Below are positions 1 to 57,672 of a stretch of DNA of 64,000 nt, in pieces; the first letter of the stretch is position 1, and the number at the start of each line of letters is the position of its first letter. This stretch comes from an uncultured Rubrobacteraceae bacterium. Its GTDB lineage: Bacteria; Actinomycetota; Rubrobacteria; Rubrobacterales; Rubrobacteraceae. The notes below the pieces were generated by a model that did not search any database, had not been told where the DNA came from, and saw only the letters and a program-made list of their open reading frames with translations. The stretch lies in assembly GCA_963819315.1 (NCBI GenBank), contig CAWFVR010000014.1, forward strand, positions 25,909-89,908, written 5' to 3'. The translations under genes and the position numbers were made by a program.

Positions 1-104
1 TCGCCGCCGAAGCCCTCAACAGGTCAATCGAAAGGGCGCTCGCTACGGGCGTCCCCCTCGTCGACATCGCCTACCTGAGCGTTACCGCAGGCGAGAATTT
101 CTAG
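1..104 (+). CDS. 3' end of an unidentified CDS (5' part lies outside the window)
   Basis: Open frame from the window edge (codons from nt 3) with about 80% G/C at third positions. It reads ...ALATGVPLVDIAYLSVTAGENF and stops at TAG 102-104. Too short to assign a family. Confidence 0.3.
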   Translation, partial: AAEALNRSIERALATGVPLVDIAYLSVTAGENF

Positions 105-404
105 GCAGCACGCTGCACTTCGCAGCTTGTCAGCACGGCGCCCTGGCGCTTGTCAGCACGCCCGCTTCGCGCGCTCTCAGCACGCTCGGGCCTTTAGAGG
201 CCCTCGCTTCTCAGCATTTCAGCTTCTCTCTGTGCTGAGAGAAGCTGACAAGCCGCCTGGCGGAGCCAAAGGCGGCGTGCTGAGAGCGAGGCCCGAAGGG
301 CCGAAGCGTGCTGACAAGCGAAGGCCGAAGGCGGAGCGTGCTGACAAGCCTGCGAAGCAGGCGTGCTGAGAAGCGGAGGCGACAGCCGGAGCGTGCTGAC
401 TAGC
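101..404. repeat. Composite palindromic repeat, copy 1: opposed arrays of 13-mer GCTTGTCAGCACG / CGTGCTGACAAGC separated by mini-hairpins
   Basis: Left-arm units start at 105, 125, 148, 173 and 206. Reverse-complement units start at 231, 244 (partial), 276, 307, 337, 362 and 392. Central hairpin at 219-250. CTAG sits at both ends (101-104, 400-403). A near-equal-length second copy lies at 57372-57672. Confidence 0.9.
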
Positions 405-3122: not shown

Positions 3123-3932
3123 TTGCGAGACTTGGCTACGGGAACGACCTTCGACGTGGGAGAGATGCGGGTACGCATCCTGGACGACGGCGTCTTCATC
3201 ACCGACGCGGGCAACCTGTTCGGCGGCTCGCGCAAGATGCGCATCCGGGGTGCGATGCACGCGGTGCTAGTCGAGACTGGAGACGACCTGGTACTCATCG
3301 ACGCGGGCTTCGGTCCGGAGCTTCCCGAGGCGCTCGTAGGACGCTACGAGCTCAGGCGCGAGAAGAGCCTCATGGATCACCTGCAAGACGCAGGATACTC
3401 GGCGGAAGACGTCACGCGCGTGATCCTCTCGCACCTCGACGCCGACCACGTTGGCTGGGCGCTCGAGCCCCCGAGCTTCCCCAACGCCACCGTCTACGTG
3501 CAGGAGGACGCGCTCGAGGAGGCTCGGGAGATGCCGGAGGGCGACGGACGCAGAGAAGCGGTCCCTGCCGTCGAGAAGGGAGTCGAGGAGGGTTGGGTCG
3601 AGCTCCAGAGCGGGAACGGCGAGGTCGTGCCGGGGATCAGGGTCGAGGTCAGGTCAGGGCACTCCGCGGGACACCAGATCGCCTGGATCGGTGACGGCGA
3701 CGACGCCGCACTCTACACCGCGGACCTGGCGCCGGCAAAGATCTGGCTCGACCCCGACCTGATAAGCGGCGTGGACACCGACCCCGAAGCAGCCCGCCGT
3801 AACCGCATCGAGGTGCTGGAGGAAGCCGAGGCGAAGGGCGCGACGGTAATCCTCTACCACGAGCCCGGCGACTTCCTCGTCAAGATCCAGCGCACCGAGA
3901 AGGGCTTCAAGGCGGTCCCTGCAAAGGACTGA
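3123..3932 (+). CDS. MBL-fold metallo-hydrolase
   Basis: Track ORF 3123..3932 has metal-binding-type motifs SHLDADHVGW and RSGHSAGH. AGGAGG lies at 3116-3121. The true start may be in-frame TTG 3132 or ATG 3165. Confidence 0.7.
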   Translation: MRDLATGTTFDVGEMRVRILDDGVFITDAGNLFGGSRKMRIRGAMHAVLVETGDDLVLIDAGFGPELPEALVGRYELRREKSLMDHLQDAGYSAEDVTRVILSHLDADHVGWALEPPSFPNATVYVQEDALEEAREMPEGDGRREAVPAVEKGVEEGWVELQSGNGEVVPGIRVEVRSGHSAGHQIAWIGDGDDAALYTADLAPAKIWLDPDLISGVDTDPEAARRNRIEVLEEAEAKGATVILYHEPGDFLVKIQRTEKGFKAVPAKD

Positions 3933-7834: not shown

Positions 7835-8113
7835 ATGGAGCAGGCAAAGAGGAGGATGATGGGGATGGCGCAGGGCGTGATGGGAAGGATCGCGGAGCTC
7901 ACGCGAGAGCGAGAGCGGCTGCTCGCCCGCGAAGCCGGGCACCATGCGACCCGCGAGGATAAGGAACGGCTCAGGCAGATAGACCACGATCTGCAGGTCT
8001 TGTGGGACCTGAGGCGCCGCGAGCTGGCCGGGGAGACCGTTGACCTCGACGAGGATTACTTCGACCGGTACGACATCGACCCTGGCGACGACGCGCCGGA
8101 CCAGTATCGGTAG
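7835..8113 (+). CDS. DUF2630-like small protein
   Basis: The pattern RIAELTRERERLL...ERLRQIDHDLQVLWDLRRRE matches the DUF2630 helix pattern (I.EL..E...L....RL..ie..LDqcWDLLRqR). Start taken at ATG 7835 inside track ORF 7694..8113. Confidence 0.55.
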   Translation: MEQAKRRMMGMAQGVMGRIAELTRERERLLAREAGHHATREDKERLRQIDHDLQVLWDLRRRELAGETVDLDEDYFDRYDIDPGDDAPDQYR

Positions 8114-8120
8114 GAGAAGG

Positions 8121-8164
8121 GAGCTTCGCGTAAGGCGCTGCGCGCAGCGCCTTACGCGAAGCTC
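8121..8164. terminator. Perfect 44-nt palindrome, likely bidirectional terminator
   Basis: GAGCTTCGCGTAAGGCGCTGCG|CGCAGCGCCTTACGCGAAGCTC: the 22-nt arms are exact reverse complements. It sits between convergent stops at 8113 and 8173. Confidence 0.6.
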
Positions 8165-8172
8165 CTCTCTTC

Positions 8173-8397
8173 TCAGAAGCCCAGCCGGGTGTTGATGTCC
8201 GCCCACTCGGCCGCCGAGGCGGCCTGGTCGATCACCTTCTTGAGCTCCAGCATGTCGTCCTCGGAGTAGGCGGGTCTGCGGGCGTCGGCCACGAAGTTGA
8301 GGATGCGCCCGTCGGCGTAACGAACGACCACCCTGGTTATGCCACCCTGCGAACCGGCCGGGCCGCTCATCTCTCTGTGTCTCTCTATGCCGTGCAA
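8173..8397 (-). CDS. Small hypothetical protein (74 aa), paralog of the upstream gene
   Basis: ATG 8397 lies 5 nt after GGGGGAGAG, which overlaps the stop of the upstream ORF. The core GITRVVVRYADGRILNFV resembles GIREIVIEYDNGDYDTF of ORF 8407..8625. Confidence 0.5.
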   Translation of the reverse strand: MHGIERHREMSGPAGSQGGITRVVVRYADGRILNFVADARRPAYSEDDMLELKKVIDQAASAAEWADINTRLGF

Positions 8398-18488: not shown

Positions 18489-20360
18489 TTATTCCTCGTG
18501 TTCACGTCGCTCAGCTGCATCTTCGATCCTTGAGTTGACCGGTCCCGAGGAGTTCACGTCAGCACGTGCTGACGTTCGTGCGATAGTACCCGCGCTATCG
18601 AGACCAAGCCTGGCTTTGACAAAGTGCTCGTGGACCGATTGGATGGCGATCGCGCCCGCCCCAACGGCGGAGGCAACCCTCTTGACCGACCCGTACCTGA
18701 CGTCGCCGGCGGCGAAGACGCCCGGCATGCTGGTTTCCATTGGGAGAGGAGGGCGCCCGAGCGGCCAGCCGCGGGGAGGTTCTCCGTCTTGCAAGAGATC
18801 CGGGCCGGTGACTATGTAGCCTCGCGTGTCGCGCACGATCTCTTCGGGCAGCCACCCAGTCCGGGGCTCTGCACCGATGAGGACGAACAGAGCTGCGGCC
18901 GGGACCGACTCGGTGAGGCCCGAGGCCAGATCCTTCAGGACTAGGTGGTCCAACCTCCCTTCTCCACCGCCACCGACGACTCGAGTGCCGAAGCGAACCT
19001 GGATGTTCTGGGCCGCCTCGATCTCCTTTATGAGGTAGTCGGACATGCTGGTAGAGAGGGAGCGACCGCGCACCAGTAGCGTCACGCGCGAGGCATATTC
19101 CGAGAGGTGTATGGCCGCTTGACCGGCCGAGTTGGCCCCGCCAACTACGAAGACTTCCTCGTCCTTCATCGCTTGGGCCTCGCTCACCGCGGCCCCGTAA
19201 AACACCCCCATACCGACAAGTTCCTCCAGGCCCGGCACGCCAAGGCGTCTGTAAGAGACGCCGGTGGCCAGGACCACAGCTCTGCTGGTCACCTCTGCCC
19301 CGTCGGAGAGCGTTAACGTCAGATCTCTCCCATCGGATCGCAGTGCGACAGCGTTCCGCATGAAGCGGAAGACGGCGCCAAACCACCACGCCTGCTCGGT
19401 GGCCCTCATGGCGAGTTCGGCGCCTGCTACACCCCAAGGGAACCCGAGGTAGTTGCGGATCAGCGAGCTTGTCCCCGCCTGGCCGCCTATGGCTTCTCCC
19501 TCCAGGACGAGGGTGCCCAATCCCTCCGAGGCGCCGTATACAGCCGCCGCCAGCCCGGCCGGTCCCGCCCCCACGATCACCAAATCGAAGCTTCGCCGAT
19601 CCAGCTCACGGTTGACGCCCAATGCGTCAACGAGCTCGGCGTTCGAGGGATCTTCGAGCACTTGCCCGTCGTAAATGACGACCACGGGGAACCTGGCGGA
19701 ACTCTTGCCAATCCGGGCGAGGATCTCCCGGCCCACCTCTGTGTCCGCGGCGTGAAATTCATGCAAGATACCGTTGCGGTTGAGAATGTCCTTCAGCTCG
19801 TGCGAGCGCGCAGACCACTGTTCGCCCACCACGCGGATCTCCGCGAACACGGGACGGTGGGCTTTGGCCCAGTCGTAGATGAATTCGGCTATCATCCTGT
19901 GGAAGTACTCGTCGCCTGGGCGCTCGGGCTTGTTGACATAGTAGTCGATGTGGCCGAGGGTCATCGCTCGGAGAACCGGTTCCTGGATTCTCCTGTCGCC
20001 CCACTCGACGAGCACTGCCCGCTTGGCGGTTGGGAAAAGCTGACTCGCACGGGCGAGAAACTCGTCGCCGGTGATGTCGGGCATCCACTGATCGGCAAGG
20101 ATGAGAGCGACCTCCTCACCGGCCGCCCTGAGGTCCCTCAACTTCTTCATACCCCACATTGCCGACGTCTCGCAAATTACTTGGTACTCGACGCCGTAGC
20201 GCCTGCGAAGTCCGTACTCGATTCTGCCGAAGGATGTGACCCCTGCGTCGACGGCAAAGATCACCGGTTTGCGCGCGTGCACATCGATGGAGACGTCCCG
20301 AACGGGAACTACGCTTGCTGCGTGGGCTGGCCTCTTCTCATCATGGCCATCGGCCGACAT
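18489..20360 (-). CDS. Fused response-regulator-like / thioredoxin-disulfide-reductase-like flavoprotein
   Basis: N-terminal REC-like domain (VALILADQWMPDITGDEFL). C-terminal two-dinucleotide-binding TrxR fold: FDLVIVGAGPAGLAAAVYGASEG, GGQAGTSSLIRNYLGFP, VFVVGGANSAGQAA, PGVFAAGDVR. Confidence 0.8.
   Translation of the reverse strand: MSADGHDEKRPAHAASVVPVRDVSIDVHARKPVIFAVDAGVTSFGRIEYGLRRRYGVEYQVICETSAMWGMKKLRDLRAAGEEVALILADQWMPDITGDEFLARASQLFPTAKRAVLVEWGDRRIQEPVLRAMTLGHIDYYVNKPERPGDEYFHRMIAEFIYDWAKAHRPVFAEIRVVGEQWSARSHELKDILNRNGILHEFHAADTEVGREILARIGKSSARFPVVVIYDGQVLEDPSNAELVDALGVNRELDRRSFDLVIVGAGPAGLAAAVYGASEGLGTLVLEGEAIGGQAGTSSLIRNYLGFPWGVAGAELAMRATEQAWWFGAVFRFMRNAVALRSDGRDLTLTLSDGAEVTSRAVVLATGVSYRRLGVPGLEELVGMGVFYGAAVSEAQAMKDEEVFVVGGANSAGQAAIHLSEYASRVTLLVRGRSLSTSMSDYLIKEIEAAQNIQVRFGTRVVGGGGEGRLDHLVLKDLASGLTESVPAAALFVLIGAEPRTGWLPEEIVRDTRGYIVTGPDLLQDGEPPRGWPLGRPPLPMETSMPGVFAAGDVRYGSVKRVASAVGAGAIAIQSVHEHFVKARLGLDSAGTIARTSARADVNSSGPVNSRIEDAAERREHEE
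18555..18574. repeat. Perfect 20-bp palindrome ACGTCAGCACGTGCTGACGT carrying the core of the large repeats
   Basis: Self-complementary 20-mer made of GTCAGCACG joined to CGTGCTGAC. It lies 82 nt past the kinase stop and inside the 3' tail of the convergent ORF 18489..20360. Confidence 0.85.
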
Positions 20361-57371: not shown

Positions 57372-57672
57372 TTGAGCACGCCGCTTCGCGGCTTGTCAGC
57401 ACGCTCCGGCTTCGCACTCCGCTTGTCAGCACGCATCGGGCCTGGCGGCCCTCGCTTGTCAGCACGGCGCCTTGGCGCCTTGTCAGCACGCTCGGGCCTA
57501 GGGCCCTCGCTTCTCAGCATCTCAGCTTCTCTTTGCGCTGAGCGAAGCTGACAAGCGGCCTGGCGAAGCCAGGAGGCGTGCTGAGAAGGCGCGAAGCGCC
57601 GTGCTGACAAGCTGCCTGAAAGGCAGCGTGCTGACAAGCGACGCCCTAAAAGGGCGGAGCGTGCTGACTAGC
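57372..57672. repeat. Composite palindromic repeat, copy 2 (same architecture and orientation as 101-404)
   Basis: Left-arm units start at 57372, 57391, 57421, 57454, 57478 and 57509. Reverse-complement units start at 57535, 57549 (partial), 57577, 57600, 57627 and 57660. It ends ...GTGCTGACTAGC like copy 1. Confidence 0.9.

Follow-up and report, generated by a model that had tools for sequence, protein, structure and literature searches.

The repeats closest to those described here are REP/BIME of Enterobacteria and Pseudomonas, which are extragenic and are considered to serve their own enzyme, RAYT, as single-stranded DNA hairpins and the host as mRNA or terminator structures, and the BOX elements of Streptococcus pneumoniae, which are modular, intergenic, stably folded and variable among strains. 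Here, we examine two loci of a comb-like repeat in a stretch of 64,000 nucleotides from an uncultured Rubrobacteraceae bacterium (contig CAWFVR010000014.1, positions 25,909 to 89,908; this whole stretch is hereafter the window), in each of which two opposed arrays of a 13-mer, GCTTGTCAGCACG, are interspersed with short hairpins. We consider it reasonably probable that both loci are previously undescribed, lineage-specific, non-coding mosaic extragenic palindromes of the Rubrobacteraceae/Rubrobacterales, which resemble REP/BIME, BOX and MITEs (transposable elements of the miniature inverted-repeat type) without being a member of any of them. Three features of the combs go beyond the first-pass annotation of this stretch: their abundance in one lineage, their hypervariability at fixed sites and the DNA mini-hairpin signature of their spacers.

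The combs share with REP/BIME an extragenic location at the 3′ ends of genes, a high copy number (at least 96 blocks in 18 genomes), a palindromic structure and a mosaic composition with a variable number of units. REP/BIME number tens to hundreds of copies, and the gene for their RAYT, an IS200-like Y1 transposase, usually lies between REPs. However, what is conserved in REP/BIME is a unit of ~20-40 nt that forms an imperfect palindrome of its own and carries a conserved 5′ GTAG, whereas conservation in the comb is limited to a 13-mer without palindromic symmetry, the palindromes themselves varying; furthermore, the comb units form two opposed blocks instead of alternating. As in BOX, the comb is modular with a variable number of internal modules, is intergenic, folds stably and differs among strains, but BOX follows an A-B(n)-C order, shows no mini-hairpin loop rule, belongs to another phylum and has no sequence relation to the comb, which is built of mirror-image arrays. 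Bacterial MITEs such as Correia, RUP and Nezha are likewise small, non-coding, bounded by inverted repeats, present in many copies, polymorphic for presence or absence, and located near genes; in contrast to the ragged ends of the comb, for which no parent was found in 96 blocks, their ends are fixed, their target duplication is of constant length and each derives from a parent insertion sequence. In particular, the Correia element of Neisseria measures ~100-155 bp and has 26-bp terminal inverted repeats and a TA duplication, whereas the comb ranges from 33 to ~340 nt, has no fixed terminal inverted repeat and occurs in another lineage. CRISPR arrays consist of 23-55-nt repeats in one orientation with unique spacers of a length like that of the repeats and with cas genes close by, in contrast to the 13-nt repeats of the comb in two opposed orientations. 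The first-pass annotation could place the repeat in no named family and found it a poor fit to REP/BIME, Correia-type elements and CRISPR; the definitions of these three indeed do not describe it, and our searches of Rfam, plasmids, viruses and the literature agree. The distinctive features of the comb are a fixed linear word set against mini-hairpins of free sequence, the two opposed arrays and an extreme allelic variability.

The genome-wide pattern search that had been proposed at that stage was carried out with two exact 12-mers (CTTGTCAGCACG-N6-36-CTTGTCAGCACG) over 185,579 species-representative genomes. The pattern matched at least 99 stretches; at least 96 blocks belonged to 18 assemblies that bear the label Rubrobacter, Rubrobacteraceae or Rubrobacterales, or that of an unclassified Actinomycetota metagenome-assembled genome (MAG); among the matches listed, up to ~20 blocks of 8 kb came from a single MAG. 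The family is thus abundant and restricted to the Rubrobacter-type lineage, and the earlier count of two copies applies to this window only. No Rfam family matched anywhere in the window at the gathering threshold, and at eight other loci nothing was found on the elements; a search in E-value mode brought up only two hairpin models, MIR918 and mir-1271, whose scores of 27-46 bits compare with thresholds of 80-268. The searched literature contained no described counterpart. Three other pattern matches (Actinomadura, Streptomyces and Halieaceae) proved to be plain tandem duplications unrelated to the family. A plasmid or phage origin was considered and rejected, in that no PLSDB plasmid matched the comb by blastn and no IMG/VR viral contig contained its pattern.

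Fixed words and hairpin spacers

The two loci in the window are composed of the following features.

Copy 1
101-104 to 400-403, whole element, from CTAG to CTAG
101-104, left junction CTAG, as read from the sequence
102-104, plus strand, stop codon TAG that ends the upstream gene (C-terminus ...SVTAGENF, then the stop)
105-216, plus strand, left arm, with unit-sense words at 105-112 (partial), 125-137, 148-160, 173-184 and 206-216
113-124, 138-147, 161-172 and 185-205, hairpin spacers of the left arm
217-250, centre, a 12-bp hairpin in which 219-230 pairs with 237-248 around the loop TGTGCT
244-404, minus strand, right arm, with words at 244-253 (partial), 276-287, 307-319, 337-349, 362-374 and 392-404
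260 (GCGGAGC), 293 and 325 (CCGAAGG), 352 (GCGAAGC) and 379 (GCGACAGC), plus strand, starts of mini-hairpin DNA motifs
400-403, right junction CTAG, of which CTA at 400-402 is the TAG stop, on the minus strand, of a convergent 71-aa open reading frame at 400-615

Copy 2
57372-57519, plus strand, left arm, with words at 57372-57380 (partial, TTGAGCACG), 57391-57403, 57421-57433, 57454-57466, 57478-57490 and 57509-57519, and hairpin spacers between the words
57523-57550, central hairpin (CAGCTTC...GAAGCTG)
57547-57672, minus strand, right arm, with words at 57547-57556, 57577-57589, 57600-57612, 57627-57639 and 57660-57672
57542, 57563 and 57591 (GCGAAGC) and 57654 (GCGGAGC), plus strand, starts of mini-hairpin motifs
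57668-57671, gene-proximal junction CTAG, of which CTA at 57668-57670 is the stop of an EamA/DMT transporter gene on the minus strand

Direct reading confirms the units that the first-pass annotation had listed for copy 1, except that its 'unit' at 231 is the loop and the 3′ half of the central hairpin, whose stem has 12 bp and not the 10 bp claimed. The second locus, 57372-57672, has the same layout, as had been noticed, and the sequence between the 13-mers does differ. Over their whole length, the copies are 75% identical, a value that rises to ~85% for the ~90 nt in the middle. The suggestion of a fixed repeat of ~296 bp does not hold, in that the size of the element is not fixed. Some of the unit-sense words of copy 1 are degenerate versions of GCTTGTCAGCACG, and its central hairpin is composed of degenerate TCAGC/GCTGA words. 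On the plus strand, the left-arm spacers of copy 1 are poor in A and have T..C loops, and the motifs at 293, 325, 352 and 379 fall within purine-rich spacers; in copy 2, the motif at 57542 spans the 3′ half of the stem of the central hairpin. The open reading frames called inside the element had been regarded as repeat artefacts, which we judge to be reasonable: open-reading-frame finders run through the combs because the unit-sense arms contain no stop codons.

With at most one mismatch allowed, the comb 9-mer was matched nine times in copy 1 and eight times in copy 2 (each ~300 nt), against ~0.11 matches expected per locus from shuffles (Poisson P of the clustering, ~5e-15 and ~4e-13, respectively). 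Folding against dinucleotide-shuffled controls, as had been recommended, revealed a large energy excess on both strands. As RNA, the z scores were -9.9 (plus strand) and -10.2 (minus strand) for copy 1 and -13.3 for copy 2; as DNA, they were -11.2 and -14.0 for copies 1 and 2, and in none of these cases did any of 100 shuffles reach the native energy. The minimum-energy fold of copy 2, in both RNA and DNA, is a comb in which 13-mers of one arm pair with those of the other and the spacers project as side hairpins, exactly the long interrupted hairpin with side branches that had been envisaged, whereas the fold of copy 1 is more rod-like.

How representative are these two loci of the family? Among 85 clusters with at least four units each, 61 consist of a plus array followed by a minus array, 19 are single arms and five are mixed. 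Across the family, the arms hold 2-5 units, the elements measure 33 to ~340 nt, and the centre is either short, as in the window, or occupied by a conserved module of ~95-110 nt, of which 38 copies were found. A logo of 533 units, built from matches with at most two mismatches, confines the information to 13 positions; in the unit sense, the flanks are distinguished only by being poor in A. The 13-mer contains a TCAGC core. The spacers behave differently. Their lengths peak at 10-12 and 16-18 nt, and the mean folding energy of 194 distinct spacers is -5.2 kcal/mol, compared with -1.9 kcal/mol after shuffling. In the folding analysis, a hairpin was obtained for 188 of 190 spacers, and its closing pair is C-G in 170; the stems have 4-5 bp and a variable sequence. 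Because the hairpins lie off-centre within the spacers, we also counted pairs outward from the loop. Of 198 spacers, 179 have C-G as pair 1. At pair 2, 98 spacers have G-C and 93 have C-G, and the two bases match in 100% of cases, compared with 48% when partners are shuffled; pair 4 is still paired in 78%, compared with 45% in the control. The spacers therefore keep structure and not sequence, and the 13-mer keeps sequence.

The loops obey a rule of their own. On the unit-sense strand, 95 of 106 triloops are T-N-C, that is, G-N-A on the other strand, and T-NN-C loops also occur, so that the opposite strand reads C-GNA-G or C-GNNA-G. One of the motifs GCGNAGC, CCGNAGG or GCGNNAGC is present on the purine strand of 162 of the 206 distinct spacers (79%); on the non-purine strand, the same three motifs occur in two spacers, and ~18 would be expected after shuffling. 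Kimoto and Hirao have reported that, among triloops, GNA alone forms 'mini-hairpin DNA', in which only GC/GC or CC/GG stems are permitted, that its melting temperature is ~70-76 C as DNA but 39 C as RNA, and that it resists 3′ exonuclease and is poorly bound by SSB (PMC13037366). A dependence on the C-G closing pair has been reported independently (PMC3201870). Most comb spacers have this composition: a GC or CC stem, a GNA or GNNA loop, a GC or GG stem and a C-G closing pair. Natural mini-hairpins, which function in DNA that is single-stranded or extruded, occur at single-strand replication-initiation sites, namely the origins of phages G4, St-1 and alpha3 and ssiA with the RepB′ primase and in the hairpin promoters of phage N4 (PMC13037366). 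These sites (GCGNAGC, GCGNNAGC) share an identical loop and closing-pair chemistry with 79% of the comb spacers; each of them, however, stands alone in an origin or promoter of a phage or plasmid, whereas the combs are arrays of 3-5 per arm dispersed in the chromosome. Because GNRA accounts for only nine of the 43 tetraloops of the six commonest types (68 tetraloops in total), a loop rule at the RNA level fits less well.

Several further sequences touch on the anatomy of the family. The ~95-110-nt module (L011:6770-6890 and 37 other loci), which is absent from the window, has the consensus ...GCTTTCAGCTTTT..GTTCCGGCCTCGCC..GCG..CAACGAACCGCTGCC...GGCGGT.GGGTTC.ACGCTCGTAGCGACGCCCCGAGACGACTTCCTGA; it was considered as a structured RNA and rejected, there being no RNAalifold consensus on either strand and a mean z of -0.4 to -0.55. 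At 18558-18573 of the window, far from any comb and inside a long open reading frame on the minus strand (18489-20360), there is a perfect 16-nt palindrome, GTCAGCACGTGCTGAC, that equals the comb 9-mer and its complement with a 2-nt overlap. A separate strong palindrome at 8112-8173 has overlapping 33-nt arms with 91% complementarity and is centred on GCGTAAGGCGC; it has no relation to the 13-mer family and probably represents a terminator-like hairpin.

Allelic variation and position relative to genes

Gain or loss of the element at fixed orthologous sites was observed at three places. First, at the copy-1 site, we compared 79 metagenomic loci that encode the neighbouring reductase at 74-97% identity. 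A comb is present in the closest relatives (L100, L102-104, L115 and L164) and in some loci at 76-84% identity, and is lacking in many loci at 85-86% identity or below. In an alignment of the window with L102, L103, L164, L112 and L108, all share the arrangement CTAG|...|CTAG around strongly different interiors. The junction CTAG followed by (G/T)CAGCA recurs in L102, L103 and L164, and in L112 and L108 a TTTCAGC-type unit starts the element immediately after the junction CTAG. The element of L108 is only 45 nt in length, and L116 and L117 have no comb but unrelated filler.

Second, one orthologous site inside the window is itself unoccupied.

3898-3917, unoccupied orthologous site in the window; also empty in L130, L165 and L122

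This site is filled in 15 relatives with 83-92% flank identity, in which elements of ~50 to 310 nt lie just downstream of the TGA stop of a gene. Empty alleles read GCTAGC, and filled alleles read GCTAG-TCAGCA...TGCTGA-CTAGC or variants thereof.

Third, at the copy-2 site, there are eight different alleles and an empty one, in loci whose EamA proteins are 89-98% identical to that of the window.

Window, EamA 100%, ~300 nt
L186, EamA 98%, left arm reduced to one unit
L179, EamA 97%, ~190 nt
L180, EamA 95%, a 33-nt element, CTAG-TCAGCACG-hairpin-CGTGCTGA-CTAG
L189, EamA 93%, ~75 nt
L187, EamA 93%, a different long centre
L190 and L181, EamA 90%, different long centres
L182-185, EamA 89%, empty

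The CTAG-TCAGCA junction of copy 2 is also found in L179, L180, L186 and L189. The reduced left arm of L186 would fit the loss of sequence between TCAGC-type direct repeats in the terminal unit and the centre, and this one allele indicates that combs contract by recombination or slippage between direct 13-mer repeats. At the end of the same gene (L186:1020-1075), a 10-nt deletion shifts the frame past the usual TAG, so that EamA gains nine comb-derived codons and stops at a TAG within a spacer; combs can therefore re-write C-termini. The spacer tgcctgaaaggcag is common to L103, at the copy-1 site, and to copy 2 of the window, which hints at exchange between copies, and we infer ectopic conversion, interior swapping or re-insertion between copies. 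The minimal or 'empty' alleles (L108:~2590-2640; L182:2391-2420) keep an 8-nt palindrome, TCAGCTGA or GCTGATCA, which corresponds to two terminal words fused and could be either a seed or a footprint of the element.

The elements are placed directly behind stop codons. A gene call based on GC3 (the G+C content of third codon positions) placed the combs between convergent genes in 14 cases, between tandem genes in 15 and between divergent genes in three. A gene ends at most 40 nt from the outer arm end in 63 of 147 arms, and 15 of those 63 have a stop codon that shares bases with the first AG of AGCACG. Copy 1 sits exactly between two convergent stop codons, each part of a CTAG; the 71-aa open reading frame on its right, which adjoins a geranylgeranyl-reductase-like gene, is kept in relatives together with its CTAG junction. 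Copy 2 has the EamA transporter stop on one side and a 198-aa gene followed by cobD on the other, all on one strand, and the EamA protein of the window is 88% identical to a protein labelled Rubrobacteraceae at NCBI. Specific targeting of TAG stops was considered and rejected: 38 of the 63 adjacent stops are TAG, but the comparison with background is 54% against 49% (P = 0.34), TAG already making up 49% of all stops in these genomes. In L001-L099 and the window, stops are TAG in 49%, TGA in 39% and TAA in 12% of cases, which is unusual at 63-69% G+C.

Two other settings were seen near genes. At L011:7030-7277, a comb lies between the stop of a gene and the U-tract terminator hairpin of its neighbour (AAAAAGGGCCGG...CCGGCCCTT), and a tRNA gene (L011:7205-7277) adjoins it; the orthologue in L005, read as the reverse complement, is without the outer units on both sides and contains a poly-G run, which may be an assembly problem. 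At L001:5782-6577 and L061:6405-7156, a plus arm and a minus arm flank the gene for an ICMT-like membrane methyltransferase, which lies downstream of a type III polyketide synthase. This arrangement around a host gene in two species shows that solitary arms can be present to either side of a gene independently of each other.

Recognition, spread and alternative explanations

How might such elements be recognised, and how might they change? Each arm alternates the fixed 13-mer with hairpins that keep pairing, a C-G closing pair and G..A loop ends. Pairing alone needs no fixed sequence, which suggests that the 13-mer is read sequence-specifically and is probably a recognition word for a trans-acting protein. 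The earlier proposal of convergent protein-binding words is consistent with the maintenance of the 13-mer sequence in hundreds of copies in 18 species genomes, in which the spacers keep only pairing. The loop rule fits DNA chemistry, and the purine-rich strand of the spacers would probably form functional DNA mini-hairpins where the DNA is single-stranded or extruded. The elements shrink via recombination or slippage between direct 13-mer repeats, as one allele shows, and would probably also swap interiors with other copies. For the host, the stable multi-branched hairpin may form a two-way barrier at gene ends, against transcription or nucleases.

The ends of the elements bear on how they spread. 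CTAG, a candidate target, is present on the two sides of the element at the copy-1 site, as it is in L180 and in a number of 3898-site alleles. The outermost units are truncated at differing points (TAGCACG, CTAGTCAGCACG or TAGCATTTCAGCACG).

A number of observations weigh against the favoured reading of the combs as mosaic extragenic palindromes. Alleles other than those flanked by CTAG share only GC, or nothing recognisable, at their ends, and CTAG is inseparable from the sequence of the element because it is palindromic and one base from the CTTG of the unit. Two automated scans for a general target duplication or exact termini yielded no recurrent duplication, only artefacts of palindromic spacers. 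No RAYT, the enzyme class that the first-pass annotation had offered as a possible cognate, was found by phmmer with E. coli RayT among 7,229 six-frame open reading frames from the window and ~1.3 Mb of Rubrobacter-type loci (best E = 4.2), and no transposase or autonomous copy was found in the 96 comb-containing 8-kb blocks. The separated plus and minus arms (L001/L061, L043 and L086) were considered as the borders of an autonomous element, but the genes between them are of a housekeeping kind: an ICMT-like methyltransferase, a HAD hydrolase, PanE, a 3-hydroxyacyl-CoA dehydrogenase, an Fe-dependent alcohol dehydrogenase and a pilin-like protein. Presence or absence is no proof of transposition, as loss or in-place growth could also explain it. 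Furthermore, neither copy in the window contains a canonical sigma-70 promoter or a U-tract terminator, the conservation of the 13-mer is somewhat overstated because the units of the logo were chosen at no more than two mismatches, and the single-stranded-DNA reading takes its loop chemistry from the literature.

The alternative that survives best, although we regard it as unlikely, is that the combs are classical MITEs. A DDE transposase encoded elsewhere would bind the 13-mers as multiple subterminal sites, as at the ends of Tn7, Mu and CACTA elements, and would insert the element at CTAG and duplicate it, in the YTAR-type manner of IS5-like elements. Direct CTAG repeats do bound copy 1 and its orthologues as well as the 33-nt element of L180, and the single GCTAGC of the empty 3898-site alleles is replaced by CTAG at both ends when the site is filled. 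Differing interiors between identical flanks could be accounted for by several rounds of excision and re-insertion at a hot spot. CTAG is also the second most under-represented tetranucleotide in the window (observed/expected, 0.51), and all four YTAR sequences are among the eight most under-represented (TTAA, 0.45; CTAG, 0.51; CTAA, 0.67; TTAG, 0.68). However, the ends of the combs are ragged, the elements beginning at varied positions inside the unit, and the L181, L187 and L190 alleles lack CTAG and share only GC. To these objections are added the inseparability of the palindromic CTAG, one base from the CTTG of the unit, from the sequence of the element, the 96 blocks in which no autonomous copy or transposase was seen, and the common occurrence of solo arms. 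Binding of a protein to double-stranded ends would, moreover, leave the mini-hairpin loop rule unexplained.

We attach a low probability to the explanation that the combs are host cis-elements acting mainly at the RNA level, as hairpin-cluster terminators or 3′-untranslated-region stabilisers shared by convergent or tandem genes, for whose spread and uniformity recombination would suffice and no dedicated enzyme would be needed. For GC-rich bacteria, a terminator role has been proposed for clusters of hairpins that lack U-tracts and lie within 80 nt of stops (PMC8355165). Those clusters resemble the combs in having adjacent hairpins within tens of bases of the stop and in requiring no U-tract (PMC8355165), but they differ in sequence from gene to gene, whereas the combs are a repeat family with a common 13-mer. 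The location just behind stops, the rarity in divergent promoter regions and the RNA folding z of -10 to -13 speak for this explanation; because the element is symmetric, transcripts from either side would also meet the same unit-sense arm first. The proximal arm, however, is present as the pyrimidine version in the mRNA of the adjacent gene, and the one-strand rule C-GNA-G/C-GNNA-G, with few GNRA tetraloops, fits DNA rather than RNA chemistry (PMC13037366). Pairing does not need the strict conservation of the 13-mer, there is no U-tract, and the empty alleles of close relatives show that the site works without the element.

A bolder possibility, which we consider equally improbable, is that the comb is a chromosomal single-stranded-DNA device, selfish or domesticated, in which arrays of nuclease-resistant, SSB-excluding mini-hairpins would lie between 13-mers read by a protein that is neither a RAYT nor a DDE transposase. 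Finally, a structured non-coding RNA gene or a CRISPR-like array is very improbable: despite the stable fold and a layout of repeats and 'spacers' that is superficially array-like, there is no Rfam family (only miRNA-type long-hairpin models, at 37-46 bits where the threshold is 268) and no promoter, the fold is equally good on both strands, the arms carry 1 to 5 units among near-identical strains, and the repeats are of 13 nt with self-complementary hairpin spacers of 10-18 nt that belong to a few recurring types and are not unique.

Implications for the Rubrobacter lineage

Few bacterial lineages tolerate radiation and desiccation as well as Rubrobacter, the architecture of whose genome has been little studied. 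If the comb were indeed a single-stranded-DNA device, it could propagate by a novel hairpin-based single-strand mechanism. Alternatively, it might serve as a checkpoint for resection or replication restart in these resistant bacteria, in structure comparable to Chi or to single-strand initiation sites, and the fast gain and loss of units would be a by-product of heavy recombinational repair.

For the mosaic extragenic palindromes that we favour, the consequences are more immediate. Because combs create spurious open reading frames and can re-write the 3′ ends of genes, as in L186, they call for caution in annotation. Comb loci vary among strains that are 95-98% identical in the neighbouring protein, and could be useful for strain typing and for measuring recombination rates. 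A sequence-constrained word that is separate from structure-constrained hairpins provides a handle with which to fish out a DNA- or RNA-binding protein, and the combs constitute an abundant natural setting in which to ask what role DNA mini-hairpins play in the chromosome.

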